This document shows, one piece after another, positions 3,954 to 20,576 of a stretch of DNA of 25,765 nt. The position numbers were made by a program, and so were the translations under genes. Position 1 is the first letter of the stretch, and each line of letters begins with the position of its first letter. Under the pieces are notes generated by a model. It made no database searches. It saw only the letters and a list, made by a program, of their open reading frames with translations, and was not told the origin of the DNA. The DNA is from an uncultured archaeon (GTDB taxonomy: Archaea; Asgardarchaeota; Hermodarchaeia; Hermodarchaeales; Hermodarchaeaceae), in the NCBI GenBank assembly GCA_964347045.1, contig CAYFXC010000028.1, positions 1 to 25,765 of the forward strand, given 5' to 3'.

Positions 3954-6194
3954 ATGCGTCGAAAATTTCTATCTCTTACAACTCTCCTACTAGCACTAAC
4001 GCTTTTACAAGTAAGTACGCCATTCAGTTTTGCAACCTTTATGCCCGGATACTATAATTCAACCGTAGCCTCCGTTTCAATGGATCCGATACCTGTAGAC
4101 ACCTTAACCATGCTTACATTCAATTCAACGTATGATTCGCAAGTTTACGCGCTATTAGTATCGAATCCAACACAGTTCAGTTTCAATATGTCCTTATACG
4201 TTGATTCCGCGCCACCCGGTCCATTCACATCCGTTTATTTTAACGTCAATCTTCGCGGGAGTGGCACCGAATACATTCCACACCTCAATCAACAACTCTT
4301 TGAAGTCAACCAATTCTGGTCTGACAACTGGTGGTGGCTAACACTCGGTTATTCTGATACCAGTTATACCGAGTTTTTGACAATCCAGTCTGGTTGGCTA
4401 ATCCTCGAATTTGATTTCGATTGGGATGATCCCACTGACCAGCTAAGTGTGAACTTCACACTAAGTCAGCTTTATGATTTAGATACAGCACAGTCCTTTA
4501 TGTGGGATCAAGATATTCTAACAAGCTGGCAAGACGATATGGAATGGGAAGCTTGTACGTTCATGCTTCCTGAAGCCAATTTATACAATGTATCTTTATA
4601 TGGAGAAATGGATTACACAACGACTGGTAGCTGGGGTGGAAATCTCAATTTTCAACCCTTCATGGATGTTGATTTTCTCGATCGTACTTATGGATCTCTT
4701 CTCCCGATTGACACGTACAATCCTTCGTTTGCTATACCTGCGGGTGCTGGTTCAGGGAACGCTAATTGGACCTACTGGGAACTCTACAAACTAGCACCAG
4801 ATGACTACTATCTCTTTGGACAAATTGGAACATTCGAATACCTCAACAGCAGTTCTGTATCTCTTCAAATGAATATCGAACCCCTCGGTATGTCAATGCT
4901 TGAAATTAACCAAACGATTAATCTCAGTTTCGATAGTACACCAACCGGGTCTCTTGCATATGTTGGTATTCACGCCCCACAAATGTACACCTATGAATTA
5001 TACTTTGATAATCACATTGGGGCCAACTGGTCTGTTGATTGTGTCGATGTGGATACAGGATGGCTTCCACCTACCTACGCCTATTATGAAGATGCTTCAT
5101 CGTACACGATTTTTGAAAATCGATTAGAAAATAGCTTTGTATTTTCCATACCAATGATGGATCCTACTCCAACGTCATCAATACTTGGAAATGAGTATCT
5201 TGAAGCATACGTGTTTGGGGGCACCAATGTTGCCTACATTAATGGCTCTGCTACAGGCGCGACATTTGCTCCAGGTGGCTATCAAAATACCTTTGATACT
5301 TTTTACATCCAAATCATCGCATCACCGTTTGGAGGAACACCAACTTCCGAGTTCAATATTACCTTCAACTTCGAAGCATATAATGTTGCCAACCTTCTAC
5401 CGAGTGGGGCTACCTTTGCAATCAATCAGACTATCGGACCTTTCTACCAAGCTTTTGCTCTCCCAGTGATTAGCGGCTTCGAATATGACTTGACAGTTTG
5501 GGCATCAGATTACAACAACTCAGGTGTTGTAGGGATCTTCTTGGCGCCCGTTTCTCAATTTTACCTAGATTGGCAGTGGATGGGATGGGTTCCGCTTTAT
5601 CAGACGACTCCACCAGGCTTGATACCAATGCAGGTAACAAATGTAAATGAAACTGCTGGGCTGAAGTTCATCGCAGTGCGAACCACAACCTTGTTTTTTG
5701 GACTGATGGGTGTGTCTATGAGTGGACCACCTCCAAGTGATACGACCGAAGTCACTGCCAACATTACGGAATCAGCTCCGCCATTCTATGCCCTGGGTAC
5801 CGTCGTTACTGAAACAATACAGGATACAGATTTGACTGTGTACAGTGTGAGCATCGTTGCAGGAACTAGCTATCGTCTCAGCCTCTCACTTAATGTGGGT
5901 GGTAGTTATGCACTTTGCTCCGTCTTTGATGGGTTCGGTTATACACCCTTTGATGCCAGTCTGTTTACACTTTATCTTGAAACAAGTAGTAGTTATCTCA
6001 ATTCCTCCATCACCTATCAAGCTCTGACCAGTGGACCTGTGACCATCTTTCTAATTGGACGTGGAACAGTTTCCTTCAGCCTTACACCTATTGGTGAAGC
6101 ACCAGGTTCTTTCGTGCTAGGACTAATGATTGGACTTATTTTCATGATTGTAGGAGTCATTATCGTCTATGTCGTCATGAGACGAAGATTCTAA
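3954..6194 (+). CDS. Secreted, C-terminally membrane-anchored cell-surface glycoprotein of unknown function
   Basis: Signal peptide MRRKFLSLTTLLLALTLL. The body is T/S/N/aromatic-rich with almost no Lys/Arg and about 17 NxS/T sequons (manual count). C-terminal PGSF + hydrophobic helix + RRRF. Confidence 0.85.
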   Translation: MRRKFLSLTTLLLALTLLQVSTPFSFATFMPGYYNSTVASVSMDPIPVDTLTMLTFNSTYDSQVYALLVSNPTQFSFNMSLYVDSAPPGPFTSVYFNVNLRGSGTEYIPHLNQQLFEVNQFWSDNWWWLTLGYSDTSYTEFLTIQSGWLILEFDFDWDDPTDQLSVNFTLSQLYDLDTAQSFMWDQDILTSWQDDMEWEACTFMLPEANLYNVSLYGEMDYTTTGSWGGNLNFQPFMDVDFLDRTYGSLLPIDTYNPSFAIPAGAGSGNANWTYWELYKLAPDDYYLFGQIGTFEYLNSSSVSLQMNIEPLGMSMLEINQTINLSFDSTPTGSLAYVGIHAPQMYTYELYFDNHIGANWSVDCVDVDTGWLPPTYAYYEDASSYTIFENRLENSFVFSIPMMDPTPTSSILGNEYLEAYVFGGTNVAYINGSATGATFAPGGYQNTFDTFYIQIIASPFGGTPTSEFNITFNFEAYNVANLLPSGATFAINQTIGPFYQAFALPVISGFEYDLTVWASDYNNSGVVGIFLAPVSQFYLDWQWMGWVPLYQTTPPGLIPMQVTNVNETAGLKFIAVRTTTLFFGLMGVSMSGPPPSDTTEVTANITESAPPFYALGTVVTETIQDTDLTVYSVSIVAGTSYRLSLSLNVGGSYALCSVFDGFGYTPFDASLFTLYLETSSSYLNSSITYQALTSGPVTIFLIGRGTVSFSLTPIGEAPGSFVLGLMIGLIFMIVGVIIVYVVMRRRF

Positions 6195-6262: not shown

Positions 6263-7555
6263 TTATTGGGTCCTAACCTGGTTTGGGAGTCTGCGTTTCT
6301 GTTGTTTTTTTTCGATCTTCCAGAAGAAGCCTGCGTATAGTACGGTGGAAACCGAATAGCTGGTCAAAGTAAACCAAAATGGAATCAAAAATAAGCCTTG
6401 ATCAAAGAGTGGTCCTGTAATGAGGGTGCTAATAGCCCAAGGGAAGTTCCAGGCAAAGGAGGATACAGCACTCATTTGGGGGCGATACAGTTCAGGTGTC
6501 AACTCCATTCTTAATGCTTGGTCAACAGGTCCGCTTGCATTCATGAGCACCACTCGAAAGATATAGCTTGCGATGGCTACATATGGATTGATGATTGTGG
6601 CAATGAGAAAAAGGAATGGTAGGGAAAGACTTTGTGTGACGAGAACGGTTTTGACTTTTCCGATTCGTGTGGACAAAACTGGAGAAAGAAAAACCCCAGC
6701 TGCAACAGATAGTGACCCGAAGCCTTGAACTAGCCCAACCATGAAGGTTGGAAGATTATAGAATTCCCAGAAGAAAATATTCAGATATGGGATTACAAAT
6801 CCTGCACCTAGACCAATGAATAGATTTACTATGCTGAAGCGGAGGAGAAGGGTTCGTACATTTTTTTGTGTAACGGGCTCTAAGTCTCCAACTTCAGGTT
6901 TAATTTCTGCAACTGGTGGATAATCTCCTTCGCGAACGATTACAAGGGGAATGATGCCAAGGGATAGTGGTAGGGCTTGGACGAGAAGTGCCATTTGGAA
7001 GGTTATAGCGCTATCAAGGGGAAAATTAAAGGTGATTGCAAAGATTCCTGGAAGTAACCCTGCTAGGGTATTAGCGATGAAGGAGCTTAGGATCATTAAA
7101 GAATATGAAGTTCCAAACAGGTGTGTGCGTTCATAGGGTGTACTGCATTTGGTCATGAAGGGGCTAAATGCCACACTAAACATGGCGGCGCCGAGTCCAC
7201 TTAGCATGGCAGTTGTATACAAAATAAGAGGCAGCGGAAATAAAACTTGACTAAGTGAGGCAAGCAGCAGGATGAACGAGGAAAGGATTAGTGATTTTTT
7301 CGTTCCAAATTTTGAAACAAATGATCCCATAATTAGTGAACAGATCGCCATGGTAAAGGCGTTGATTGACATGAGGCTGCCTATGAAAGTGTTACTATAT
7401 CCCAGGCTGATGAGATAGAGGTTGAAGAGAGTTTGGGCAATTCCCCAGCCGAAAGCGCGAAGGACATTGGCTAAAATGAGCTTTTGTGCATTAGGTGTAA
7501 ACTGGCGTATACGCTGCCAATATCCAACAGCATCCTCGCGTAGCATGTTACTCAC
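6263..7555 (-). CDS. MFS transporter (paralog 2)
   Basis: About 12 TM segments with GSFVSKFGTK and PVLSTRIGK loops; GTG start with AGGAG RBS; shares sequence blocks with 1332-2684. Confidence 0.9.
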   Translation of the reverse strand: MSNMLREDAVGYWQRIRQFTPNAQKLILANVLRAFGWGIAQTLFNLYLISLGYSNTFIGSLMSINAFTMAICSLIMGSFVSKFGTKKSLILSSFILLLASLSQVLFPLPLILYTTAMLSGLGAAMFSVAFSPFMTKCSTPYERTHLFGTSYSLMILSSFIANTLAGLLPGIFAITFNFPLDSAITFQMALLVQALPLSLGIIPLVIVREGDYPPVAEIKPEVGDLEPVTQKNVRTLLLRFSIVNLFIGLGAGFVIPYLNIFFWEFYNLPTFMVGLVQGFGSLSVAAGVFLSPVLSTRIGKVKTVLVTQSLSLPFLFLIATIINPYVAIASYIFRVVLMNASGPVDQALRMELTPELYRPQMSAVSSFAWNFPWAISTLITGPLFDQGLFLIPFWFTLTSYSVSTVLYAGFFWKIEKKQQKRRLPNQVRTQ

Positions 7556-7631
7556 GGGTTTCTCCTATAATAGAGAAGTGACCATAGAAAGAGCGTATTT
7601 TAAGCTACTGTCTATAACAAAATCGATGAAT

Positions 7632-8801
7632 CTACAAATCGTATTCTCGAAAAACTTCACGTTGAATCAAATATCGAAGAATTTCGGCTGTTCCTCCTCC
7701 AATTGTCATGAGCCGTGCATCACGAAGGAACCGTTCAACCGGACGTTGTTTTGTATAACCGATTCCTCCTAGCACTTGAAGTGCCTCTGTAGCGGTTTCA
7801 ATAGCTTTCTCACATGCATAGAGTTTTGCAATTGCAGCATCTTTTGTAGCGGGTTTACCTTCATCAATCATTCGTGCTGCTTTGAAGGTAAGCAATCGTG
7901 CTGCTTCAAGTTTCATTGCCATATCTGCAATTTTAAAACTAATACCTTCAAACTCGCGGATCTTCCTACGGAATTGTACCCTATAATTACTATAATGCAC
8001 TGCTTCTTCCATGGCAGCACGAGCAACACCGTTCATTTCTGCAGCAAGGATTGTTCTCTCAGCATCTAATCCTGCCATTACTACACGAAACCCCCCATTC
8101 AAATCTCCAAGGATTTGTTCTTCTGCTACTTCTACATCATTTAAGGCAAGTCGACCTACATGGGCACCATGCATACCTAGGAGCTCATATTCCTCAACTA
8201 CTTCAAAACCCTTCGATTTTGTTTCTACGATAAATGCCGTCATACCCTGTTTAGCTTTCACTTTCGGATCCGTTACAGTATAGCAGAGCAAGTAATCAGC
8301 TACCGGACCATTTGTGATAAATCGTTTTTCTCCATTGATAACATATTTATCGCCGCGTTTTTCAGCTCGTGTTTCTATTCCTGCAACATCACTTCCCACA
8401 TTGGGTTCGGTTATCCCCAAAGCACCGATTTTTTTTCCCTGAGCCACAGGTCTCAAATATTTCTTCTTTTGTTCTACTGTTCCAAATTCGAATACTGGAT
8501 GAGCAAATAGAATACAAGAGGCCACTCTTGCCATATCAAGACCTGCATGCACAGCACAGATTTCCTCAGTAACTAAGACTTCATAAATCAGACCCTTACC
8601 GATCCCTCCATATTCAGGTGGGTATCTAGCTCCTAAGTATCCGGCTTTTCCGAATTTTCGAATTATATCCCATGCCTCAACTTTTCCTTGCTCAATATCC
8701 TCTACAACCGGTGTTAGGGTTTTTTGTACAAAATCTCGAGCATCCGCTTGAAATTTTAGCTCATCATCAGATAAGAACGATAACTTTGTCACAGAAATCA
8801 C
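7632..8801 (-). CDS. Acyl-CoA dehydrogenase (isovaleryl-CoA DH/LCAD-type catalytic layout)
   Basis: GITEPNVGSD, NGEKRFITNG, RVQFRRKI, QVLGGIGY and ERFLRDAR motifs. IGGGTAEI lacks the MCAD-type Glu while GLDAER carries the helix-G Glu. Exact start uncertain (GTG 8801 or 8792). Confidence 0.93.
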   Translation of the reverse strand: MISVTKLSFLSDDELKFQADARDFVQKTLTPVVEDIEQGKVEAWDIIRKFGKAGYLGARYPPEYGGIGKGLIYEVLVTEEICAVHAGLDMARVASCILFAHPVFEFGTVEQKKKYLRPVAQGKKIGALGITEPNVGSDVAGIETRAEKRGDKYVINGEKRFITNGPVADYLLCYTVTDPKVKAKQGMTAFIVETKSKGFEVVEEYELLGMHGAHVGRLALNDVEVAEEQILGDLNGGFRVVMAGLDAERTILAAEMNGVARAAMEEAVHYSNYRVQFRRKIREFEGISFKIADMAMKLEAARLLTFKAARMIDEGKPATKDAAIAKLYACEKAIETATEALQVLGGIGYTKQRPVERFLRDARLMTIGGGTAEILRYLIQREVFREYDL

Positions 8802-8899
8802 ATCGCAGACAATTTCAAAGCCGAAAAATAATAGGCTCTTGTTTTTAAAGTGCTTTGCTACGCACTAAAAACAAATCTAATCAAGCTAAAAAAATTATA

Positions 8900-9295
8900 T
8901 TACTTTTTACGCCTTGATTTATGCAAGGCTGTAACAGCTTGTTGTCGGGTTTGTCTTTTAATTTCCTCAATTTGCTCAATTGCAGGAAGAATGGTGTCTA
9001 CCAAATCACTCTTCGCTTGTATTCCTTCATGGGTAAGGAACGCTACCGCCTCGCTTCGACTTTTAAAAATCTCTAAGGCGATCAAAGCATCGACAATGCG
9101 AAGATCACTATCCCATAGTCGAGTCATTACGATATTATCACGACGTTTAGCCTCAGGCAGATCGCCTTTCATAAAGAGCTGCTTGAGCTCTTCCATTACT
9201 TCTTGCTTTAAAGTTGGGGAGATCGCTAAATCTTCGGATGAAATTGAAGCGGGTGCTGTTTTTCGTTTTGATTTAGCTTTCGTTGATTGGGTCAT
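8900..9295 (-). CDS. Ribbon-helix-helix (CopG/Arc/MetJ-like) domain protein
   Basis: NIVMTRL (beta strand) - DSDLRIVDALIA (helix) - FKSRSEAVAFLTHEGI (helix with the SRSE turn). Confidence 0.7.
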   Translation of the reverse strand: MTQSTKAKSKRKTAPASISSEDLAISPTLKQEVMEELKQLFMKGDLPEAKRRDNIVMTRLWDSDLRIVDALIALEIFKSRSEAVAFLTHEGIQAKSDLVDTILPAIEQIEEIKRQTRQQAVTALHKSRRKK

Positions 9296-9393
9296 AGGCC
9301 TTCCCTACCATTCAAGGTGATTCAAACATTACATTTTAGCGTTACGCCTCACCATCTTTACGCGTTACATTTTTGCACTTCTTGTTGAGGTTC

Positions 9394-9454
9394 GTGATAG
9401 GGGCAAGCTTATATACGATGTAGAATACCCCTATTCACCTTAACAGTGTTAAGG
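9394..9454 (+). promoter_or_regulatory. Promoter and palindromic operator(s) of the tusA-dsrE-iscS-iscU operon
   Basis: TATA-like TTATATA at 9409-9415; perfect palindrome CCTTAACA-G-TGTTAAGG at 9438-9454; imperfect inverted repeat GTGATAGGGG (9394-9403) / CCCCTATTCAC (9428-9438) around the TATA box. Confidence 0.6.
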
Positions 9455-9479
9455 AGTATGGTTCTGGAGGCGTATACGA

Positions 9480-9740
9480 GTGCCAGAAAAAAACAAAAGC
9501 AGTGAAATAGAAATTCATCATCGGATTGATGCACGAGGTTTGTATTGTCCAATCCCCGTATACAAAACACGTCAAGCCGTATTGGAGGCGAAACCCCAAG
9601 AAGTGGTTGAAATTCTTTCAGATGATCCTGCTTCTGAAGAAGACATTTCACGATGGGCGAAACGAACTGGAAATACAATCCTTCATCTTGAACACTGTGA
9701 TGATTATTTGCGGTTCCTAATTCAAAAAACAGATAGGTGA
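9480..9740 (+). CDS. tusA: Sulfurtransferase TusA/SirA family protein
   Basis: IDARGLYCPIPV (CPxP), ILSDDPASEEDISRWAKRTG; GTG start with GGAGG RBS. Confidence 0.92.
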   Translation: MPEKNKSSEIEIHHRIDARGLYCPIPVYKTRQAVLEAKPQEVVEILSDDPASEEDISRWAKRTGNTILHLEHCDDYLRFLIQKTDR

Positions 9741-9746
9741 AAAATA

Positions 9747-10109
9747 ATGGCGGTGAAAATGCTCTATGTCGTAGTTAGCGGTATAGATACTCCAGAACGC
9801 CTTTATGCCCCTTTTATACTTGCTACAACGGCCTGTCATTTAGATATTGATGCCACGATTTATTTTGTCATTAAATGTGTGACGGTCATGAAGAAAGGTG
9901 AAGCAGAGAAAATTATGATGGGTAATTTCCCGCCACCTAATGAAGTAATTGAGCAAACAATTAAGGCGGGTGTTGAACTCGTAGCCTGCGATCAAAGCAC
10001 TCAAGTGCTGGGAATAGATCGAGGTGGATATGTTGAAGAATGTGGTGTCGTTGGTGCCACAACATTAAACGATCTTGCCTCAGAAGCTGATGCAATCCTC
10101 ACCTTCTAG
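9747..10109 (+). CDS. DsrE/DsrF-like sulfur carrier family protein
   Basis: YAPFILATTA...ATIYF, GVELVACDQS (conserved Cys), VVGATTL...EADAILTF C-terminus; AGGTGA RBS. Confidence 0.82.
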   Translation: MAVKMLYVVVSGIDTPERLYAPFILATTACHLDIDATIYFVIKCVTVMKKGEAEKIMMGNFPPPNEVIEQTIKAGVELVACDQSTQVLGIDRGGYVEECGVVGATTLNDLASEADAILTF

Positions 10110-10139
10110 CGGAAATTGATATGTGGGAGACAGGAAAAA

Positions 10140-11354
10140 ATGGTAATACAAACTAATTTCAATCATAGTGCGGGTGTTCCTGTCGATGAACGTGTGCTTA
10201 AAGCCATGGAACCCTATTTTCGCACTTACTATGGAAATCCATCATCAGTGCATACAGCTGGCCAGCAATCTGCCAAAGCAATTGCCAATGCTCGGGTTCA
10301 AGTTGGGCAACTAATCGGCGCTGAATCCAAGGATCGAATATTATTCACAAGCGGAGCCACAGAAGCCAATAACTTAGCACTACAAGGATACGCGTATCGC
10401 CATCGACGAAAAGGGAATCACATTATAATCTCTCAGGTCGAGCATCTAAGCATTATTAATACTGCAAAATTCCTTAGCAAACAAGGCTTTGAATATACTC
10501 AGCTACCTGTTGATAAATACGGTATTGTCGACTTAAAAGCACTTGAAAAAGCGATTACGGAACAAACTATTCTACTTTCAATTCAACATGCTAATAATGA
10601 AGTAGGAACAATCCAACCACTAGTGGATATAGCAAAAATCGCTAACGATGCTGAAGTTCCCCTTCATGTAGACGCCGTTGCAAGTGTCGGTCAGATACCG
10701 ATAAATGTGTCAGAATTAGACATTGCAATGCTCACCCTTTCTTCAAATGACATATATGGACCCAAAGGCATGGGTGCGCTTTATGCAAAAAAAGAAATTG
10801 CCCTCCAGCCAATCCTACTCGGAGGAGGTCAAGAATTTGGAATCCGTTCTGGATCTGAAAATGTACCTGGAATTGTAGGTATGGGTGTCGCCGCTGAGAT
10901 CGCAATGAATGAACTTCCCAAACATGCAGAACACCTCTCAGGACTGCGTGATAAACTAATTAGCGGTGTACTTGAGAGGGTAGATGAAGCATACTTGAAT
11001 GGTCACCCCATAAAACGCCTACCTAATAACGCTAACATTCGATTTAGTTACATTGAAGGAGAGGCCATAACTTTGCATCTAAGTTTCCAAGGATTCCTCG
11101 TTGCAACTAGCTCCGCATGCACTTCGAAAACACTTGCCCCCTCACATTGTTTACTAAGTATGGGTATCTCAGAAGCTGAAGCGCATGGTGCACTCCAGCT
11201 AACTTTAGGTCGTGAAAACACGAAAACACAAATCAATCTATTCGTCGATATATTACCGCCGATTATTGAAAAACTTAGAGCTATGTCACCACTTTCAAAA
11301 GATGTCCCCTATGATCTTTTCGAAAGCGAGGATAAAGAACATCACCATCATTAA
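10140..11354 (+). CDS. iscS: IscS/NifS-family cysteine-desulfurase homolog, Archaeoglobus type (PLP Lys replaced by Asp)
   Basis: GNPSSVH, FTSGATEANN, EHLSI, NNEVGTIQP, GGGQE, RSGSENV and SSACTS (Cys codon 11118-11120). SSNDIYGPKG replaces S(A/G)HKxYGPKG. ATG 10140 is preferred over TTG 10116. Confidence 0.9.
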   Translation: MVIQTNFNHSAGVPVDERVLKAMEPYFRTYYGNPSSVHTAGQQSAKAIANARVQVGQLIGAESKDRILFTSGATEANNLALQGYAYRHRRKGNHIIISQVEHLSIINTAKFLSKQGFEYTQLPVDKYGIVDLKALEKAITEQTILLSIQHANNEVGTIQPLVDIAKIANDAEVPLHVDAVASVGQIPINVSELDIAMLTLSSNDIYGPKGMGALYAKKEIALQPILLGGGQEFGIRSGSENVPGIVGMGVAAEIAMNELPKHAEHLSGLRDKLISGVLERVDEAYLNGHPIKRLPNNANIRFSYIEGEAITLHLSFQGFLVATSSACTSKTLAPSHCLLSMGISEAEAHGALQLTLGRENTKTQINLFVDILPPIIEKLRAMSPLSKDVPYDLFESEDKEHHHH

Positions 11355-11776: not shown

Positions 11777-12163
11777 TTATTCATCAGGCGAAGCTATCAG
11801 TTTCTCAATGATTGCCTTGAAGGTCTCCGATGAGAGAGCACCTTTGATAAGATAGTCTTTGGCTCCCATGTCCATGACTTCTTGAACGGTTTCATCGTCG
11901 TCGATAGCAGTTAATGCGACGATTGCTACCTTTGGGTAATCAGTTGAGACCTGGCGGATTAGTTCGGTTCCGCTGATTTTTGGTAACACCAAATCAACGA
12001 AGAAGATGTGCGGGGGATTAGCCTTAAGCTTTTGGAGAGCTTCTTCCCCATCTACAGCGGTCTCTATTTCATAGTCTCTAAGTAGTAACTGCGCCGCTCG
12101 AAGGAATGTTTCAGAGTCATCTGCTAACAGAATTTTTATGCTATGCGATTTCTTGGAAACCAA
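11777..12163 (-). CDS. Stand-alone response-regulator receiver (CheY-like) domain
   Basis: ILLADDS acidic pocket, FFVDLVLP phosphoacceptor Asp, ALTA Thr and DYLIKG Lys. The probable TTG start at 12163 overlaps the upstream gene's end (ORF track start 12229). Confidence 0.9.
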   Translation of the reverse strand: MVSKKSHSIKILLADDSETFLRAAQLLLRDYEIETAVDGEEALQKLKANPPHIFFVDLVLPKISGTELIRQVSTDYPKVAIVALTAIDDDETVQEVMDMGAKDYLIKGALSSETFKAIIEKLIASPDE

Positions 12164-13595
12164 TTTGTGGTTTTCCCTCCACAAGGTGTGTATAGATACA
12201 ATATTGAGGAGTCGGGGGATTGATACCATGAAATATTGTGACTCCTTCCTTAACAGCTAAATTAACATGAATGTCCGAAAGATCCGCCAAATATTGGTTA
12301 ATCTCTGGCGTACTACTATAGCCGATAGTGACGGCGAGGTTACTTTCGGTAGCTGTGTCGTTGGCGATGCGTGTTGCCCATCGGGGGAGTTCCGCTGGAC
12401 CGAGCCAGGAATGCAGCCAGCCAAAACCGACAATACTAAGAAGGTCTTTGCACCCCTGATTCCGGAGTTCTTCTAATACCATGCTCCAGGCATTTTCAAG
12501 GTCAGAACTTTCACGAAAGGCTACCGTCTTATAATATGGTTCGCCAAGCTCTCCAGTCGCACTAGATACACCCAGACTTGTAGCCGCGCTTGCGAAAAGG
12601 CGAAGGTGTGTATTTAATTGATCAACAAAACCATAACGTAATGCGGCGGCTTTAAGGCGGCGAAAACTGAGTTTGTTGGGTGGTACAATAACTACTCCAC
12701 TTTTTTGTCGAAGAAAGTTTGCAATCATATTAAGTACTAGGCTATTGACCGTTTCATTGGCTACTCCTTCAGAGACATTGAGGAAAAAGGTGCTCCCACG
12801 ACGGAAACCACCAAAGATGGCGTCAAGTTCTTTTATACCTGATGAGAATCGACCACCTGTATGGGGAATAACCTCAAAATCCGAAACGCGAACAGCCTGC
12901 TCTGAATCATAAGAGTACAAAATAGTAAACCGATTACCACGAAGTGAAAACCCGCGCGTGGCTTGATCGATTGGAGTTCCACGCAACTTTATAATTCGGA
13001 TACTTCGCCACATACGTCCTTCTGTAAGTTCTTTAGTTACACAAACAATTCCATCGACAATGTGATCTAACGGTGATTCTTCAATTCCTTCAAAAACTAG
13101 AATAATTTTTCCGCTCAGTATACGACCAAGATTCGTTAATGCGCTTGTCAATCGCTGAGGATCTGCCTGTGCCGCTTCAATAATTGCATCAAATGAGTCA
13201 ATGATGCAAACAGGAGAGGTCATATCTCGTAGTCGATCATTTACAGCACTAATGAAGGTCAGCTCATCAGAATAAACCATTCGTGTTTTAGAGGGTTCCC
13301 CGGATTCAAAAGGGGCTTCTGGAACACCCATTATTGTAGGGGTGGCATCGACAATTTGGCTTTCCGGAAGCATCTCGAAAGCCCATGGAAACTGAGATTT
13401 CAAATTTGTGCTAGCAACACGTGAAGAAAGATAGATGAAGTTTTCAACGCTGAATCTGTCAGGAAGTGATTTAGTGAGTTGGTCTAAGAGAGATAAAGCA
13501 AATGTTGATTTGCCAGTTCCTGACCGTCCTTTAACAAGTAGCGTCTGTCCTTGTTCTTTTTTCAAGAATTCGATGAGTTCTGATGGGAAGGTCAC
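12141..13595 (-). CDS. Two-domain KaiC/RecA-fold ATPase, GvpD-like (intact N-domain P-loop, degenerate C-domain)
   Basis: N-domain: LLVKGRSGTGKS, YLSSRV, CIIDS, HIVDGIV, IKLRG. The second domain begins FSSGIKELDAIFGGFRRGS but has no Walker A. GTG 13595 has AGGTG upstream (alternative GTG 13607). Confidence 0.8.
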   Translation of the reverse strand: MTFPSELIEFLKKEQGQTLLVKGRSGTGKSTFALSLLDQLTKSLPDRFSVENFIYLSSRVASTNLKSQFPWAFEMLPESQIVDATPTIMGVPEAPFESGEPSKTRMVYSDELTFISAVNDRLRDMTSPVCIIDSFDAIIEAAQADPQRLTSALTNLGRILSGKIILVFEGIEESPLDHIVDGIVCVTKELTEGRMWRSIRIIKLRGTPIDQATRGFSLRGNRFTILYSYDSEQAVRVSDFEVIPHTGGRFSSGIKELDAIFGGFRRGSTFFLNVSEGVANETVNSLVLNMIANFLRQKSGVVIVPPNKLSFRRLKAAALRYGFVDQLNTHLRLFASAATSLGVSSATGELGEPYYKTVAFRESSDLENAWSMVLEELRNQGCKDLLSIVGFGWLHSWLGPAELPRWATRIANDTATESNLAVTIGYSSTPEINQYLADLSDIHVNLAVKEGVTIFHGINPPTPQYCIYTHLVEGKPQIGFQEIA

Positions 13596-13618
13596 GAGTT
13601 TGAGCACCTTTTATTTCT

Positions 13619-14158
13619 TTATTGTGTTGCCATTTCCGTATGTTCTAAGAGTAATTGTGAAATGATCTGGAAAAGTTCTTTGACGTTCGTTCCGTCTTTT
13701 GCGGAAGTTTCAGTATATCCTAGCATTTTGAGTTTTTTTCCAATCTTCTCAGCTAGCGCAGGTTCAACAACTCGGTCTTCTCTCAAATCGCTCTTATTAC
13801 CCACAAGATATAGAAGTACATCCGGTGCGCCCTGCTTTACATCGTTTACCCACTCATTAACACATTCTAAGGTATCTTTTCTAGTCAAATCAAATACGAC
13901 AATAGCAAAATCGGTTCCAAAGAGATACTGTACACGAACACGCCGAAAGGAGGTTTGGCCTGCCAGATCCCACACCTGAAGTGAAATATCTGAATCCCTG
14001 ATAGCGGTCTTGAATGTAAATATCGCCGCACCTAGAGTTGCTTTGTACCCTTCTTCAAAAGCATCAGTCATATAACGCTTGATGAGTGAGGTTTTCCCCA
14101 CGGCATAATCACCAATGATTGAAACCTTGAACATGTAACGGCTACTTTTTGGTACCAT
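13619..14158 (-). CDS. Rab-like small GTPase (Ras superfamily)
   Basis: G1 GDYAVGKT, G2 YKATLG, G3 WDLAGQ, G4 NKSD, G5 ETSAK. RabF-like SLQVW, FRRVR and VVFDLT. No C-terminal Cys prenylation motif. GGTGA RBS at 14168-14172. Confidence 0.95.
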   Translation of the reverse strand: MVPKSSRYMFKVSIIGDYAVGKTSLIKRYMTDAFEEGYKATLGAAIFTFKTAIRDSDISLQVWDLAGQTSFRRVRVQYLFGTDFAIVVFDLTRKDTLECVNEWVNDVKQGAPDVLLYLVGNKSDLREDRVVEPALAEKIGKKLKMLGYTETSAKDGTNVKELFQIISQLLLEHTEMATQ

Positions 14159-14265
14159 TCTGCGTTATCACCAAACCCAGTGTTGTTTCCCTCAGATGAG
14201 TATTTTCGATTAGAGTGATTTAAGCCCGTCGGTTTTGTTTCTCATGCTTTCTCCATTTTTAGTGA

Positions 14266-15006
14266 TTATTGAATGGGTGGTAAATCGGAGACCTGAATAC
14301 CTTTGTCACCTATTATAAGGAGGAGGGGGTTCATCTGGTGACTTGTGCCCCGCATTTTACCGATTTCAATAGTTCTAATTCGTACAGTTCCTTGGCTCAT
14401 AAGCTTCAAAATGATCACCCCGTCCATTAGAAATCCTTCAACATCGAAACGACCGATGCTATCATCTGTTGGACTTTCCACTGCGACTAAGCAGGTTGCT
14501 TTGCTCATACGGAGCGAGCGAACCATGTTGAGGAGATCATGTCGAATACGAAACAGATCCTTATGTTGAAGAGTCAGTGTTGATACCGAGTCGATGGCTA
14601 CTCGTTTTGCTTTAACGCGGCGTATTTCGCGATGAATTAAAGATAATAATGATTCCATCGTGAATTCTTCGCGACCAAGCACGGGGTGTTCTGGTTTAAG
14701 AACCACTCGTTCATTTTGAATCATCGGTGAAGCATCGACGAGTGCAATTAGTCCCCTATCGATGAGTTCTTGGAGGTCCCACCCAAATTGCTTCATATTT
14801 CGAACTGTCGATTCAATAGATTCTTCCATCGACACTAGTACACCTGGTTCCTTGAGTTCCATGGCGCCTTTGATGAGAAATTGGTTCATCAGAATCGATT
14901 TGCCAGTTCCTGGTCCTCCACTAATAAGAATCACCGCGCCTTTTGGAAATCCTCCGTGCAATGCTTCATCTAAGCCTGGTATGCCTGATTTTGTCTTTTC
15001 AGCCAC
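14266..15006 (-). CDS. Single-domain KaiC-like (RAD55 family) ATPase, all catalytic motifs intact
   Basis: SGIPGLDEALHGGFP, Walker A GGPGTGKS, SMEES catalytic Glu pair, Walker B VAIDS, DGVIIL and the KMRGT Arg finger. GTG 15006 is preferred over TTG 15042. Confidence 0.92.
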   Translation of the reverse strand: MAEKTKSGIPGLDEALHGGFPKGAVILISGGPGTGKSILMNQFLIKGAMELKEPGVLVSMEESIESTVRNMKQFGWDLQELIDRGLIALVDASPMIQNERVVLKPEHPVLGREEFTMESLLSLIHREIRRVKAKRVAIDSVSTLTLQHKDLFRIRHDLLNMVRSLRMSKATCLVAVESPTDDSIGRFDVEGFLMDGVIILKLMSQGTVRIRTIEIGKMRGTSHQMNPLLLIIGDKGIQVSDLPPIQ

Positions 15007-15202
15007 ACTAATCCCCCGATTATATGGTCTCCTTATATTCAAGTCCCAATTGATGGCTTAAGAGGTTTGCGTATCTCTTCAAAGTATTTAGAAACATCTA
15101 CAGACTTCCCAAAACCTTTTTTCTTTTCAAGAGAGCTAGAATACGAACTCGGCACTTGCGAAGTAAATACGATTTGCTAGTGATATTACCGAGGGGGCTA
15201 TC

Positions 15203-15910
15203 GTGATTCTCGATCCAATCCTGCAGGGAGGACTCCCTCATGGAACCAGTATTGCATTGATAGGACCACCAGGTTCAGGAAAAACTTGTCTTTGTCTTCA
15301 ATTAGTGTTGGATGCAGTAAATCAAGGACTTGATGGCTTATATCTTACAACTGAAAATACGCCATCTACTTTAGTCGAATATGCTCAAGGTTTTGGAATT
15401 CCTCTTCCAAATCAACCCACGAAAAACCCAATCCAATATGTCGATGCTTATAGCTGGAGAATTGGAATGCAAAAAGATCCATTTGCTTTTAGTCGAATTA
15501 GTAATCCTGGGAATCTTAATGAAGTAAATTTGATTATTACCGATCAAGCCAAACTTTTGAAGCCGGGTTCCATTGTTATTATTGATTCTATATCAGGTCT
15601 AAGCCTATCAGCTCCTGATGAACAACGAATTCGAACTTTTGTACATAGCCTTGCACAAAGGATTTGCATTCAAGGAAAGATTCTCGTTTTAATTCTCGAA
15701 GACAGGGCTCATGATCCTAGACTAATTACAAATCTTCGTTCTCTCGTTCAAGGGTCTATTCATACAAGGGTGGTTGATGGTTCCGATGGATCACTTCAAT
15801 GGTTTCTACGGATGTACAGCCTTATCGGAGTTCAACACGAGACTAGATGGTACGAAGTAGCCGTTGAAAAGAAGGGTCTAACCTTGAAAGGAGGTGCAAG
15901 AAGTGAATAA
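15203..15910 (+). CDS. Single-domain KaiC/RAD55-like ATPase lacking the Arg finger
   Basis: LDPILQGGLP, Walker A GPPGSGKT, TTEN, YVDAYSW and VIIDS. The KxRG position reads SLIG. GAGGGGG RBS. Confidence 0.85.
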   Translation: MILDPILQGGLPHGTSIALIGPPGSGKTCLCLQLVLDAVNQGLDGLYLTTENTPSTLVEYAQGFGIPLPNQPTKNPIQYVDAYSWRIGMQKDPFAFSRISNPGNLNEVNLIITDQAKLLKPGSIVIIDSISGLSLSAPDEQRIRTFVHSLAQRICIQGKILVLILEDRAHDPRLITNLRSLVQGSIHTRVVDGSDGSLQWFLRMYSLIGVQHETRWYEVAVEKKGLTLKGGARSE

Positions 15911-16586
15911 ACTAATCCATCTTGCTTTTGCCCCCACAGGAGCTTTACAAATTCCTCGGGGTTCACAGTTACTCATAATTGGACCTCCCAGTGTTGTCAA
16001 GACTTTGATTGCCCTAAGATATCTTGCTGATCGACTTAAAGCTGGTGAGCCTGCTGTTTTTGCAACCACACTTTGGTCTCCAAAACAAATTCGTGACTCA
16101 CTTCACCGAATGGGTGAAAGCCAAGTTGTTACCAAGCTTCGCATTGCTGACGGTATCTCTTGTGTAACTGCACAACCATCGCAGGAACCCTATTCTTTTC
16201 AAAATCTCTATGATTTAAACACTATCAACCTAGTCTTGCTCCAAGCTATTGCTGACCTTGAGAACGGTCATATTTGCCTGGATAATTTAACCACTTTGAT
16301 GACGTATTCATCACCGTTATCTGTCATTAAATTTCTTCAAGTTCTTTGTGCCAGAGTGAAAACCAAGGGAGTCACCGGTATCTATTTGATCGAAGAGGGA
16401 GTTCATGCAGAAACAATTGTTGCCACACTTCGATTTGTAGTTGATGGTGTTTTAGAAATTCAAGATGAAGAAGAGAAAGATCGTCTTAAACATAAGATTC
16501 GTTTAACTCATCTTCGTGGTACTCAGGTTGATTCACGTTGGCTCAAATATAACGAATCAAGCCATTTGATCAGAATCAAGAAGTGA
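15903..16586 (+). CDS. Degenerate KaiC/RAD55-like protein (broken P-loop, Arg finger retained)
   Basis: GPPSVVKT, TTLWS (no Glu), ICLDNL, RFVVDGVLEI and THLRG. GTG 15903 follows GGAGGTG and overlaps the upstream gene's end by 8 nt. Confidence 0.82.
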   Translation: MNKLIHLAFAPTGALQIPRGSQLLIIGPPSVVKTLIALRYLADRLKAGEPAVFATTLWSPKQIRDSLHRMGESQVVTKLRIADGISCVTAQPSQEPYSFQNLYDLNTINLVLLQAIADLENGHICLDNLTTLMTYSSPLSVIKFLQVLCARVKTKGVTGIYLIEEGVHAETIVATLRFVVDGVLEIQDEEEKDRLKHKIRLTHLRGTQVDSRWLKYNESSHLIRIKK

Positions 16587-16636
16587 ATTATCAGGCAAAA
16601 ATACTTCTTTTTGTGATATTGTTTGAAAATTGACTA

Positions 16637-17350
16637 TTATCCTTCTAAAAATCGCACTGAGCTGTCCTTGACTTGATTGAAGCTTGAGAATGTCTCATCT
16701 GATGATACTTCTTTAGTACTTGACTCTTTAGGTTTGGGTGGAAAGAGGTAGTAGATTATATCTTCAAAGGTTTCGATAAAACCTGGTACTAGTAAGATAG
16801 CGACTATACAGAGAACGAAAACACCGACAACACCTAAGATAAAGCTCATTGGATAGTGTGCCATTTCCCACGGTAGGATACCCATGTAGACAAGCCAGAT
16901 TTCAAAGACAACTCGCGCCACATTTGCAAAGAAGAGGATGATAGTGACAACAATCACAGCGAGGATTTTCCGCGACCAAGTACCTCTGGGCAAGGGAAGA
17001 ATTAATCCCATAAATACAGCAATTACTTGAATGCCCGTGCATTCACGTACAATTTGATACTGCTGAAATCCAATAACAAAAACGTAAACAATACCATTAA
17101 TCCAATCGATAAGAGCAAAAGAAGGAACACTAACCCAAGTTAAGAATACAGCTGATACGACGGCTGTTGGAATGCCGAGAATAAATGGTTGCGGAAGAAA
17201 ATATACTAAAAGCGTTATAGTAATAGCAATAATCAGGTACAAAACCAGAGCTCGCGGAGTCGGTCTTTCAATGTCTTCTGCTGAATCTTCAACTACTTTT
17301 TCTGGTTCGTCTCGGTTTCTAATTGGTTTATCAGTAGTTATTGGGTTCAC
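16637..17350 (-). CDS. Exosortase/archaeosortase family membrane protease-transpeptidase
   Basis: Multi-TM protein with the Cys-Arg-His triad in order: IVRECTG, ANVARV, EMAHY. Start uncertain (GTG 17350 chosen; the ORF is open to 17494). Confidence 0.85.
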   Translation of the reverse strand: MNPITTDKPIRNRDEPEKVVEDSAEDIERPTPRALVLYLIIAITITLLVYFLPQPFILGIPTAVVSAVFLTWVSVPSFALIDWINGIVYVFVIGFQQYQIVRECTGIQVIAVFMGLILPLPRGTWSRKILAVIVVTIILFFANVARVVFEIWLVYMGILPWEMAHYPMSFILGVVGVFVLCIVAILLVPGFIETFEDIIYYLFPPKPKESSTKEVSSDETFSSFNQVKDSSVRFLEG

Positions 17351-17567
17351 CGTCCTCGTAGCTGGGGGACTTGCCTTCCTAATGAATCTCCAATTCCTAG
17401 GAGAGACATTGGTACTTTTTGGAGTGTTTCTCTTCACTTCTACACTAATCTGCTGGATAGCAGCGCGTCGGCAAAGGAAACAATAATCAAGCAATTCTCC
17501 AATTATTTATTAGGCTTCTCCCTTCACCATTCATTATTTTGGCTGACATCAATCAATATGATCTTAG

Positions 17568-20500
17568 TCAGTTCCACATTGGAAGGAGGAAAATAAATTT
17601 CGCCCCCTTCGTATAATTTCCTTTTACTCTATCTTCAACCCAAATTTCTCCTCCATATCGATCAACAATACGCTGAACAAGGGTGAGACCTATACCCGAG
17701 CCTTGAGCCTTTTCAAAGACTCTTTGTGTGTAACGAGCAAAAATCCGCTTCTTCAAATCGTCTGGGATACCAGGTCCGTGATCACTTATTTCAACTCGAA
17801 GGAAGCGCTTATTCGTATCCGAGTGAACCTTCGCTTCAACCTCAACTTTTTCATGATGATCAAATTTTACTGAGTTATGAAGTAAATTGAAGAATAAATC
17901 GGCTAACAAATCATCAGCCAGAACTTTGTATTTATCTGGATGAATATTAGTATCCAATTTAATGGTTTTTTCAGGAAAAGCTTGTTTCACCGCCTGGAGT
18001 GCAGATTGGAAGTCAGGTTCGATATCTCTAATCTCCATCAGTGTTTCAATCTTATCCATTCCTGAAAACTTCTTTACTCTTCCAATCAGAGCCGCACTTC
18101 TTTCGACTTGGTGTAAAGATAATTGAAGTTGGGTTCTCAGGGTTTCAGGGAGTTCAGGATTTAATAATTGTAATTCTAAAGTTGAAAGAATTGCCTGATT
18201 AATATTGTTCAAATCATGTGCCATCAAGTCAGTGAAAAATTCCGCTCTAGCTTTTGCTTCTTCTAGAGCACGTTCGTCATCTTTTCGCTCTCTAATATTT
18301 CGTGTTACAATTATGTAGCCCTTGGGTTTTCCATCCGCTCCGATTAGAAGCGAAGCACTGATTTCTGCCGGAAATATAGATCCATCTTTTTGGGTAAGTG
18401 TGAAAGGGTAAGGAATAGATGGACTATGCTCCTTAGTAGCTCTTAAAAGTTTGATTGCATCATTTCGTTCTTCAGGAACAATGAAATCAAAACAATTTCT
18501 GCCTAAAAGCTCTTCAGGCGTCCTAAATCCCAACAACTGTACAGCGCGCTCATTGACCAAAATAATAATTCCTTCAGCGTTAGTAAGAGTAATAGCATCC
18601 GGAGAAGTTTCAACAAGAGAACGATATCGCGCTTCTGATTCACGCAATGTTTCATCAGTATTCATCCTTTGTGTGATGTCGCGACAAACTCCTCGGTAAC
18701 CGGTTAGTTCTCCATTATCTCCTATGACTGGTCGTCCACTGGCTTCAAGAATAATAATACTCCCATCTCTATGGACGAAACGATCAACAAGATTCTTGAA
18801 TGGTTTCTGTTTAGAAAGCGTTTCGGCGAAAATCGCTTCCCCCTCTTCAGCACTTGCTGGATCCATATATTCAAAAAATACCCGATCAATAATTTGTCCT
18901 GCTGTATACCCGAGGATATCTTCAACAGAACTATTTGAATATACAAACCTACCTTCGCGATTCACTTCCCAAACCCAATATGCTGTATCTTCAACCAGTG
19001 ACCTGAATTTTTCTTCAGAGGCCTTGAGTGCAATCTCAGCGAGTTTTCGTTCAGTGATATCCTCTCCAGAGCTTAAGATTCCTGTTCGATTTCCTTCCTC
19101 ATCTTCCAATATTGTAGTGTGCCACAGGATCATTCGCTCTGTTCCATCTTTGTTTATAATTGGATTTTCAACGAATTCTTTTAGCTGATAATCACTTGAC
19201 ATAGCTTTTTCGAAAAGTTCCTTCATTTCATCGCGATCACGTTCAGGGATGCACAAATCGAAATAATTCTGACCAATGAGTTCTTCTTCATTAAAACCAA
19301 AGATTTCACATCCTTTACGGTTAACCAAGAAAATACGCTGTTCCCTATCAATACCGAAAAACGCCGTACCTGCAACATCAAGATATTGTTGAGCCCGATC
19401 TCTTTCATACCGAATAACATCTTCTGCAATTTTCCGTTCATGAATATCCATAATAGTAGCTTGAGTAGCAGGTTTACCTTGGTATTCTATAACTGACAGG
19501 GACAGCTCAAACCATCGAATACTCCCATCCTTGAGGATTCCACGCAACTCTAAACTTGTTGAAACCGGTTGCCCTTGAATGATGTTCTGAAGCTGTTCCC
19601 AAGGAACATTTCGATCATCAGGATGAATAATTTCAAAAATCTTCCACGGTTCAAAGTCAAGGATTTCTTTTTCTGTGAACCCACTGATATTGAGAAACGC
19701 AGGATTGACAAAAACAACTTTGCCATCTTGAATGATGAATAATCCTTGGATTGATTGGTCGACTAATTTGTGGTAAGCTTCTTCGGCTCGTTTTCGCTCG
19801 GTAATTTCCTGAGTTACTTCGACACAACCAAGAAGCTGTTTATTCTCATCAAAAAGGGGATACCCATGTATTAGCCACACACGTCCATCGGGAGTGCGAA
19901 TTTCATTTTCATGAAATTCACCTGTATCCCTTGCAGCAACAACAGGGCAATCACTACAAGGGCTCTCTCGCTGTTGCCAGATTTCGTAACAATATTTTCC
20001 TATGAGTTCATCAACATTTAGATTCACCGAATCAGCTGCGGCTCGATTCGCCCAAACAATTCGGTTTTCTTTGTCATGGAAAATTACATGCTCTGAAATA
20101 CTATCCAAAATCACAGATTTTTCATGTTCGGATTTTTTCAACGCGTCTTGGCTTTGCTTTAACTCATCTTGTTTGTGTCTTAATTCAGTAATGTCTTTTT
20201 GAATTGAGATTGAATATTTTAATGACCCGTTATCGTCTCGAATTGCGTTTGCACTAAGTAAAACTGTTCGTCTATCTCCGGATTTGCTTTGAATAATGAG
20301 TTCTTCATCATTGATTGTGCCTTTTTCCTTCCAGGACAAAAATAGTTCTTTGACCTTCGCCTCGCATTCAGGTGCATATATGGTTCGGATGTGCTTCCCT
20401 ATTAATTCAACACGTGAGTAACCAAGTACTTTTAGTGCCGCTTTATTCAAATCTAAAAGAATTCCTTGGGGTGAGACCATATAGCAGTATAGGGGGGCAT

Positions 20501-20576
20501 TTTCAAAGAAAAGCCTAAACCGCGGGTCTTCATCTTCATCGGTGATTTCTTTTTCTTCTCGCTTGTGTGAAGACAT
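17568..20576 (-). CDS. Cytoplasmic sensor histidine kinase with six PAS/PAC domains
   Basis: Six PAS starts (FENAP, LDSISE, VDQSIQ, LDVAGT, VEDTAY, VETSPD), each ending in a DITE/EITE/DIHE/DITQ/NIRE-type linker. H-box MAHDLNN, N-box NLLHNSVKF, G1 DHGPGI, G2 GSGIGL. No TM segment. Confidence 0.96.
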   Translation of the reverse strand: MSSHKREEKEITDEDEDPRFRLFFENAPLYCYMVSPQGILLDLNKAALKVLGYSRVELIGKHIRTIYAPECEAKVKELFLSWKEKGTINDEELIIQSKSGDRRTVLLSANAIRDDNGSLKYSISIQKDITELRHKQDELKQSQDALKKSEHEKSVILDSISEHVIFHDKENRIVWANRAAADSVNLNVDELIGKYCYEIWQQRESPCSDCPVVAARDTGEFHENEIRTPDGRVWLIHGYPLFDENKQLLGCVEVTQEITERKRAEEAYHKLVDQSIQGLFIIQDGKVVFVNPAFLNISGFTEKEILDFEPWKIFEIIHPDDRNVPWEQLQNIIQGQPVSTSLELRGILKDGSIRWFELSLSVIEYQGKPATQATIMDIHERKIAEDVIRYERDRAQQYLDVAGTAFFGIDREQRIFLVNRKGCEIFGFNEEELIGQNYFDLCIPERDRDEMKELFEKAMSSDYQLKEFVENPIINKDGTERMILWHTTILEDEEGNRTGILSSGEDITERKLAEIALKASEEKFRSLVEDTAYWVWEVNREGRFVYSNSSVEDILGYTAGQIIDRVFFEYMDPASAEEGEAIFAETLSKQKPFKNLVDRFVHRDGSIIILEASGRPVIGDNGELTGYRGVCRDITQRMNTDETLRESEARYRSLVETSPDAITLTNAEGIIILVNERAVQLLGFRTPEELLGRNCFDFIVPEERNDAIKLLRATKEHSPSIPYPFTLTQKDGSIFPAEISASLLIGADGKPKGYIIVTRNIRERKDDERALEEAKARAEFFTDLMAHDLNNINQAILSTLELQLLNPELPETLRTQLQLSLHQVERSAALIGRVKKFSGMDKIETLMEIRDIEPDFQSALQAVKQAFPEKTIKLDTNIHPDKYKVLADDLLADLFFNLLHNSVKFDHHEKVEVEAKVHSDTNKRFLRVEISDHGPGIPDDLKKRIFARYTQRVFEKAQGSGIGLTLVQRIVDRYGGEIWVEDRVKGNYTKGAKFIFLLPMWN

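Follow-up and report, generated by a model that had tools for sequence, protein, structure and literature searches.

A KaiC-family ATPase cluster with a stand-alone receiver and a Rab-like GTPase in an Asgard archaeon: a candidate signaling hub

What is a Rab-like GTPase doing in the middle of a run of KaiC-family ATPase genes, next to a receiver (REC) protein? The question is raised by contig C28 (CAYFXC010000028.1), a 25,765-nucleotide stretch of DNA, analyzed whole and called the window below, which is part of a 2.58-Mb genome bin, 89% complete, from an uncultured archaeon of the Hermodarchaeaceae (the Hermod family, our family f1). Asgard archaea carry dozens of Ras/Rab-like GTPases whose regulators and targets are mostly obscure, and genome layout is rarely informative about them (PMC10933270). 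The neighborhood described here is conserved and under selection, and it names candidate partners for one Rab-like GTPase: an ATPase, a receiver, and a probable sensor kinase. The reading that we prefer, with a probability of about 0.55, is that the locus is an Asgard form of the KaiC-type signaling hub of archaea, organized around a GvpD-like ATPase, with the receiver and the GTPase as parallel switches. The features of the locus are as follows.

11777-12229, minus strand: stand-alone REC protein, CheY-like (Pfam Response_reg, E 2.7e-21)
12141-13607, minus strand: GvpD-like two-domain KaiC-family ATPase, 488 amino acids (Pfam GvpD_P-loop, KaiC, GvpD_bR2)
13619-14158, minus strand: Rab-like small GTPase, 179 amino acids (Pfam Ras, E 1.1e-44, 152 bits)
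14218-14225, minus strand: GCTTAAAT box, candidate TATA element (from the alignment of the KaiC1-GTPase spacer)
14266-15042, minus strand: KaiC1, canonical single-domain KaiC-like ATPase (Pfam KaiC, E 1.2e-66)
15203-15910, plus strand: KaiC-like A (Pfam KaiC, E 2e-24)
15894-16586, plus strand: KaiC-like B (Pfam KaiC, E 3.9e-21; DUF7504, E 4e-12)
16637-17494, minus strand: exosortase/archaeosortase-family membrane protein, 285 amino acids (NCBIfam TIGR04178)
17568-20576, minus strand: soluble histidine kinase with six PAS stretches and HATPase_c (Pfam)

An initial annotation, made from the sequence alone, had proposed the ATPase, GTPase, receiver, and kinase genes of this list for positions 11777 to 20576, and Pfam matches and coordinates confirm all of its genes, gaps, and domains. 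KaiC1 is separated from the GTPase gene by 107 nucleotides, and the GTPase gene from the ATPase gene by 11 or 23, according to which GTG start is chosen. The ATPase and REC genes overlap, by 89 nucleotides if the receiver begins at its ATG and by 23 if it begins at TTG 12163, which would leave a protein of 128 amino acids. The TTG is the preferred start because the 23-nucleotide overlap recurs in relatives. The divergent spacer between KaiC1 and KaiC-like A, annotated at about 200 nucleotides, measures 160, or about 196 from the probable KaiC1 start at GTG 15006, and the start of KaiC-like B overlaps the end of KaiC-like A. Could so many ATPase genes have come together by chance? Four of the nine KaiC-family matches in the genome fall within 4.5 kb at this locus, so the clustering is not accidental.

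Does the GTPase belong to the cluster? Synteny extends over all 18 kb of the region in seven congeneric genomes, which is little evidence by itself. More telling are the relatives at greater distance. A metagenomic contig whose ATPase is 67% identical to that of the window carries KaiC, Ras, GvpD-like, and REC genes in the window order, with a GTPase 71% identical. On a Guaymas-type sediment contig (L155; ATPase 62% identical), the order is KaiC1, lipoate-ligase, Ras, a 101-amino-acid open reading frame (ORF), GvpD-like, and REC; the lipoate-ligase gene, on the opposite strand, splits KaiC1 from Ras. The L155 Ras protein is 64% identical to the window GTPase, compared with 45% for the nearest paralog. 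Since orthologs are found in relatives with ATPase identities of 67% and 62%, the GTPase is, on this sequence comparison, older than the genus, and it stayed with the GvpD-like and REC genes after KaiC1 had been separated from them. The 101-amino-acid ORF of L155, at 5668-5973 on the plus strand between the GTPase and GvpD-like genes, has no counterpart in the window and no family match.

The substitution pattern points the same way. The ratio of nonsynonymous to synonymous substitution (dN/dS) for the GTPase is 0.07 to 0.09 where it can be computed, synonymous sites being saturated, and because it lies below 0.1 the GTPase is under purifying selection. The corresponding values are 0.03 to 0.04 for the ATPase and 0.04 to 0.06 for the receiver, and the dN of the GTPase rises in step with that of the ATPase.

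Is the association confined to the Hermod family? Of 301 genomes sampled from the phylum, 139 have a match to a profile of the GvpD-like family, and the neighbors of 84 GvpD-like copies outside f1 were surveyed over about 4 kb per side, with our own profiles as labels, a Ras-family call being made at E below 1e-15 and the ATPases being grouped at 50% identity into 34 clusters. The clusters and thresholds are author defined, the sample covers only part of the genomes, and related genomes cannot be counted as independent; the counts that follow should be read accordingly. REC is the next gene downstream, on the same strand, in 15 of 157 rank-1 slots, representing 6 of the 34 clusters; rank-1 receivers outside f1 are always in this position, and such loci often have a KaiC gene and a second receiver 2 to 3 kb away. 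The rank-1 count for Ras-family genes is 13 of 157 slots, compared with 3 of 135, 0 of 124, and 1 of 89 for the next three ranks. Ras genes make up about 0.7 to 1% of genes in five of the surveyed genomes, and five of the 34 clusters have a rank-1 Ras neighbor, giving a binomial P of 5e-4 if 1% per slot is expected and 1e-2 if 2% is. The rank-1 enrichment spans four families beyond f1 and has fallen to background by rank 3. The link of the GTPase to the GvpD-like and REC genes, on which the initial annotation had built its proposal, is thus more than chance: an ortholog is kept after rearrangement, its dN/dS is below 0.1, and Ras genes are enriched beside GvpD-like genes elsewhere.

The arrangements in other families are informative in their own right. 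In family f6, one strand of genome G145 carries genes for a histidine kinase with PAS domains (PAS-HK), a PAS protein, REC, GvpD-like, and KaiC1; KaiC-like A, KaiC-like B, and Ras come next on the opposite strand, and a HisKA-REC protein follows. In its relative G223, the REC-GvpD-like pair is followed directly by the ortholog of the G145 Ras gene, and none of the three KaiC genes intervenes; between these two genomes, the Ras proteins are 60% identical and the ATPases 41%. In a tree of the ATPases, the sequences from the Hermod family cluster with the G145 and G223 proteins. Families f14 and f23 show a different pattern, in which Ras holds the downstream, same-strand slot held elsewhere by REC, at a gap of a few to about 20 nucleotides, and there is no REC within the fetched flanks of these GvpD-like-Ras pairs. 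In f23, a gene for a Gtr1/RagA-like GTPase comes after Ras. The run in L141 (G212:C1:3716000-3734000) is one such, with GvpD-like, Ras, and a 428-amino-acid Gtr1/RagA-like GTPase at 6790-10246 and a second RagA-like gene two genes away. In some of the f23 Ras proteins, the G3 motif reads DxxSQ in place of DxxGQ. In L142 (G035:C7), the f14 GvpD-like-Ras pair is followed by ORFs of 134 and 140 amino acids (16809-17648, minus strand), which have no Pfam or NCBIfam match and could be Roadblock-like partners beyond detection.

What sort of protein is the GvpD-like ATPase, the proposed center of the hub? All four ATPases of the locus exceed the PF06745 gathering score of 26.6 bits, which, together with Walker A, Walker B, the catalytic Glu, and the Arg finger, was used to judge membership in the KaiC family. 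The GvpD-like protein scores 52.4 bits against GvpD_P-loop (cut-off, 24), 50.8 against KaiC, and 32.6 against GvpD_bR2 (cut-off, 27.9). Its N-terminal domain looks catalytically active, to judge from its motifs: Walker A GRSGTGKS, Walker B D137-S138, E173, and the Arg finger K207-x-R209 (KLRG). Across 40 diverse homologs, residues G27, G30, G32, K33, D137, R201, K207, and R209 show no variation. The C-terminal domain is RecA/KaiC-like with no P-loop, the sequence SEGVANET standing at the P-loop place. An AlphaFold2 model (mean predicted local distance difference test score, 89) aligns over its full length with the two-domain cyanobacterial KaiC (Foldseek E 1e-24), so that the protein can be regarded as a KaiC-like double domain whose second half has been inactivated. 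The description of this gene as a GvpD-like double-domain ATPase therefore stands, on three Pfam matches and the predicted fold.

The other three ATPases fall into two kinds. KaiC1, described earlier as an intact KaiC-like ATPase, is just that: its catalytic motifs are complete (GGPGTGKS, SMEES, IDS, and KMRGTSH), and it is the most conserved gene of the cluster, with 73 to 91% identity across the Hermod family. KaiC-like A keeps a P-loop (GPPGSGKT), one catalytic Glu (TTEN), and Walker B, with LIG replacing the family KxRG Arg finger. KaiC-like B has a degenerate P-loop (GPPSVVKT) and no catalytic Glu and retains an HLRG Arg finger. This reciprocal degeneration is conserved in 10 to 11 orthologs, including those of family f6, and the complementary loss of motifs suggests that A and B form an obligate hetero-oligomer with composite active sites.

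The GTPase itself has a full set of G motifs. G1 to G5 are intact (GDYAVGKT, T41, DLAGQ, NKSD, and SAK), catalytic Gln included, and do not vary in the alignment of its homologs (A3), and its top matches in the PDB are Rab6, Ypt6, Rab43, Rab35, and Rab5, with E values down to 3.7e-35. The Ras profile match, these motifs, and the Rabs as closest solved relatives all agree with its first description as Rab-like. The C-terminal Cys prenylation motif is absent, the sequence ending in EHTEMATQ, so the protein is Rab-like and not a membrane-anchored Rab of the eukaryotic type.

How are these genes likely to be expressed? Within the genus, the spacer alignment has the GCTTAAAT (TTAAAT) box between KaiC1 and the GTPase gene kept in seven of eight genomes, and a GGTGAT ribosome-binding site is conserved directly upstream of the GTPase ATG. 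From these elements, we infer that the GTPase, GvpD-like, and REC genes form a transcription unit of their own, with the GCTTAAAT box as its candidate promoter. Because the conserved TTAAAT box lies in the 107-nucleotide gap, KaiC1 is probably a separate unit, or one that adds transcripts by read-through. The receiver is probably coupled in translation to the GvpD-like ATPase, whose gene it overlaps by 23 nucleotides. In the sister genus, a different TATA-like box lies ahead of the GvpD-like gene. A scan for bacterial sigma-70 promoters and intrinsic terminators gave no excess over shuffled sequence, the model being inapplicable to archaea.

What feeds the receiver? The REC protein matches Response_reg and nothing else, in keeping with the earlier remark that it lacks an output domain, and it has the expected residues: an acidic pocket (D37/D38), the acceptor D79, T107, and K129, in the numbering of the 150-amino-acid ORF. 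The PAS-HK of the window, 5.3 kb from the REC gene, was called a soluble kinase with six PAS domains, which holds, with six PAS stretches and no transmembrane-like segment; a hydropathy scan of the cluster proteins finds such segments only in the archaeosortase-family protein. Its kinase motifs are present (H-box His786, N box, G1, and G2). In the genome as a whole, there are three strong REC domains and four histidine kinases. Two of the three receivers adjoin a kinase of their own, which leaves the locus receiver for either the window PAS-HK or a 754-amino-acid kinase on contig C19. A PAS-HK accompanies the cluster in both Hermod genera and adjoins REC in G145 of family f6, and that of the window is the likely candidate for the kinase of this receiver.

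How might such a hub work? In the reading that we prefer, the soluble PAS-HK would sense an intracellular cue and phosphorylate the receiver. The receiver, with no output domain of its own, would bind the GvpD-like ATPase and shift its nucleotide or oligomeric state. The GTPase would dock on that ATPase too, as a further on/off switch working in parallel, and the ATPase would read the states of both switches and act on a target, by analogy with haloarchaeal GvpD and its partner GvpE. KaiC1 and the A/B pair would be accessory ring ATPases, one subunit of the pair giving the P-loop and the other the Arg finger. Why parallel rather than successive? In other lineages, Ras fills the gene slot of REC and no REC lies in the flanks, an arrangement that suggests parallel roles and not consecutive steps. 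And why should the ATPase be a reader? GvpD of haloarchaea binds GvpE and lowers its level, for which the P-loop is required (PMC4390858), and since GvpD acts on GvpE in this P-loop-dependent way, a role as reader or effector is favored here, and the ATPase setting the nucleotide state of the GTPase is less likely.

Several observations weigh against this reading. Three sister-genus genomes (ATPases 61 to 62% identical) have no GTPase gene between KaiC1 and GvpD-like, where the gap is 116 to 136 nucleotides, and no ortholog elsewhere, the best match (45%) being at paralog level. The cluster-linked GTPases do not form a single orthologous group across Asgard lineages and are found at varying positions, so the GTPase link could be loose; the lack of orthology fits repeated recruitment or paralog replacement. 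Most of the surveyed GvpD-like genes have neither a Ras nor a REC neighbor, and the enrichment test draws on five clusters and our own dereplication. The kinase on contig C19 could serve the locus receiver in place of the PAS-HK. Lastly, no output gene for the cluster was identified.

The first two of these points lead to the strongest competitor, which we consider improbable though deserving of serious attention: that the true system consists of KaiC1, the GvpD-like ATPase, REC, and the A/B pair, while the GTPase is a passenger, co-inherited with no common function. The sister genus has managed without the GTPase while keeping the remaining cluster intact, namely KaiC1, GvpD-like, REC, A/B, archaeosortase, and PAS-HK genes. 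The genome has about 20 to 30 Ras-family genes, roughly 1% of the total, from which a neighbor could be drawn, and the GTPase gene is preceded by its own candidate promoter. Against a passenger stand the ortholog kept beside GvpD-like and REC genes in a relative whose ATPase is 62% identical, where the locus has been rearranged, the purifying selection on the GTPase, the gap of 11 to 23 nucleotides to the ATPase gene, and the enrichment of Ras genes at rank 1 in four other families, which fades to background by rank 3. The search for a conserved gene order across Asgard genomes, which the initial annotation had put forward as a check, came out split. The core of KaiC1, GvpD-like, REC, and A/B genes holds in both genera and in family f6, and the GTPase is missing in the sister genus, where it appears, from the older orthologs, to have been lost. 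The GTPase is a real but nonobligatory member of the cluster.

A bolder proposal goes beyond the preferred one, and we regard it as speculative: GvpD-like ATPases may be an unrecognized class of direct partners for Asgard Ras-superfamily GTPases, as effectors, chaperones, or regulators of nucleotide state, with REC and Rab-like proteins as interchangeable inputs to the hub, in a prokaryote-type circuit controlling eukaryote-type GTPases that predates or stands beside the Roadblock/longin type of guanine nucleotide exchange factors (GEFs) and GTPase-activating proteins (GAPs). The GTPase-ATPase pairs recurring in other Asgard lineages give otherwise partnerless GTPases a testable candidate partner. 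If REC and GTPase are indeed alternative inputs, the locus would show how a eukaryote-type switch came to be wired into prokaryote-type signaling in the lineage nearest to eukaryotes.

The linear relay that the initial annotation itself had proposed fares less well and is, in our judgment, doubtful. It runs from PAS-HK to phosphorylated REC, then to a KaiC-type complex, which would set the nucleotide state of the GTPase as a noncanonical GEF or GAP or, on a wider reading, as a factor resembling a GDP dissociation inhibitor. It draws on the same linkage evidence as the parallel switches do, and the GTPase, having kept its catalytic Gln and all G motifs, is predicted to cycle between nucleotide states. 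There is also no Roadblock or longin regulator in the window, a claim of the initial annotation that genome-wide profile matches uphold: the genome has 13 Robl_LC7 matches, none on the locus contig, and no longin match above cut-off, a single weak one lying outside the locus. Those 13 Roadblock genes, however, could provide GAP or GEF activity in trans. Nothing puts the GTPase downstream of the receiver, and the Ras genes found in the REC slot, with no REC, in other lineages suggest parallel roles. No RecA-fold ATPase known to us acts on a Ras-family GTPase as GEF or GAP.

The weakest alternative, which we think very unlikely, is a conflict or defense module or a regulator of surface structures (archaellum, pili, or archaeosortase substrates), for although KaiC-like proteins such as ArlH work at the archaellum motor, KaiC1 and KaiC-like A have subthreshold ArlH/FlaH matches, and an archaeosortase-family gene is a conserved neighbor in the Hermod family, the ArlH scores are far under the cut-offs, the window has no arl or pilus genes, no archaeosortase neighbor was seen at the f6 cluster in G145, and PADLOC gave no significant defense-system match, its marginal ones being at the P-loop level (E about 1e-4, 17 to 19 bits).

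How does the proposed hub compare with systems already described? KaiC-like ATPases have been proposed as archaeal signaling hubs (Makarova, Galperin, and Koonin, 2017, as related in PMC5847659 and PMC6393860), and KaiC-REC fusions occur in Methanosarcinaceae (PMC5847659); the initial annotation had already called the proximity of KaiC-like ATPases to REC and GTPase genes not unprecedented. As far as those accounts portray the archaeal hubs, the locus resembles them in having several KaiC-family ATPases, inactivated copies included, clustered with signal transduction genes, and differs in having separate genes instead of fusions, a GvpD-like two-domain protein as the hub, and a Rab-like GTPase in the unit. 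No fused GvpD-like forms appeared in the ATPase homolog search, which gave only close relatives and so is not evidence of absence. With GvpD, the locus ATPase shares a P-loop KaiC-like domain and a bR2 region; unlike GvpD, its neighbors are a receiver and a GTPase instead of a transcription activator, and the similarity is at the profile level only. No gvp genes, including GvpE, are found among the window proteins. By these sequence features, the locus ATPase is GvpD-like in architecture and not a GvpD ortholog. Cyanobacterial KaiC has the two-domain RecA-like fold already mentioned; unlike in the circadian protein, the second domain here has no P-loop, the score against NCBIfam PRK09302 is 33.8 with a cut-off of 408, and there is no KaiA or KaiB gene in the window.

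What about small GTPases under receiver control? In Myxococcus, response regulators feed the MglA GTPase module (Frz-RomR-MglA/MglB; PMC3441718), and bacterial conservons combine a histidine kinase, Roadblock, and an MglA-like GTPase (PMC4316618). In both, as at this locus, where the tie is drawn from genes alone, a histidine kinase or receiver is tied to a small Ras-superfamily GTPase. The bacterial modules have an MglA-type GTPase and a Roadblock (MglB) partner, whereas the locus has a Rab-like GTPase, no Roadblock gene, and a KaiC-family ATPase in the partner position. Among Asgard archaea, the small GTPase genes of strain MK-D1 are generally not in operons with Roadblock, longin, or TRAPPC3 genes, which makes partners hard to predict from genome layout (Tran et al. 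2024, PMC10933270). The GTPase of the window resembles the Asgard Rab-like GTPases of that study in its soluble core without a prenylation motif; unlike those of MK-D1, it sits in a conserved exception to the rule, with a different kind of neighbor. KaiC-REC and receiver-GTPase links were therefore known before. A link between KaiC or GvpD and a GTPase, to judge from the searchable literature, whose coverage is partial, has not been described: no text there joins Asgard archaea, small GTPases, and KaiC, nor GvpD and a small GTPase.

The surroundings of the cluster are those of ordinary metabolism, with genes for IscS/IscU, DsrE, acyl-CoA dehydrogenase, and acetyl-CoA synthetase. Two further window proteins, of 746 amino acids (3954-6194, plus strand) and 156 amino acids (8850-9320, plus strand), have no Pfam or NCBIfam match, and their position is conserved across the genus. 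In both Hermod genera, the archaeosortase gene has kept its place with KaiC-like B on one side and the PAS-HK on the other, a conservation confined to the Hermod family. Its product is a multipass protein with no Pfam match that scores 42.6 bits against TIGR04178 (cut-off, 23) and also weakly matches the ArtH and heimdallarchaeosortase models. In the sister genus (L040, 11384-11986, minus strand), KaiC-like B and the archaeosortase gene are separated by a 200-amino-acid ORF, which, by eye only, has a phosphoribosyltransferase-like VVDDIVDTG motif.

Other GTPase loci came to light as well. KaiC and Ras genes on contig C1 were considered as a related locus and rejected, being 6 kb apart with RIO kinase, DUF460, methyltransferase, and NucS genes in the interval. 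Elsewhere in the genome that holds the window, the interval G000:C1:182150-184402 groups four Roadblock/LC7 genes with a weak Ras-family match (C1:182499-183005) and may be a classical GTPase-Roadblock locus. Finally, in the closed 3.6-Mb genome G053, three tandem Ras-like genes of about 320 codons (G053:C1:3325186-3327596, inside L138) lie a few kilobases upstream of a GvpD-like-KaiC-Ras run.

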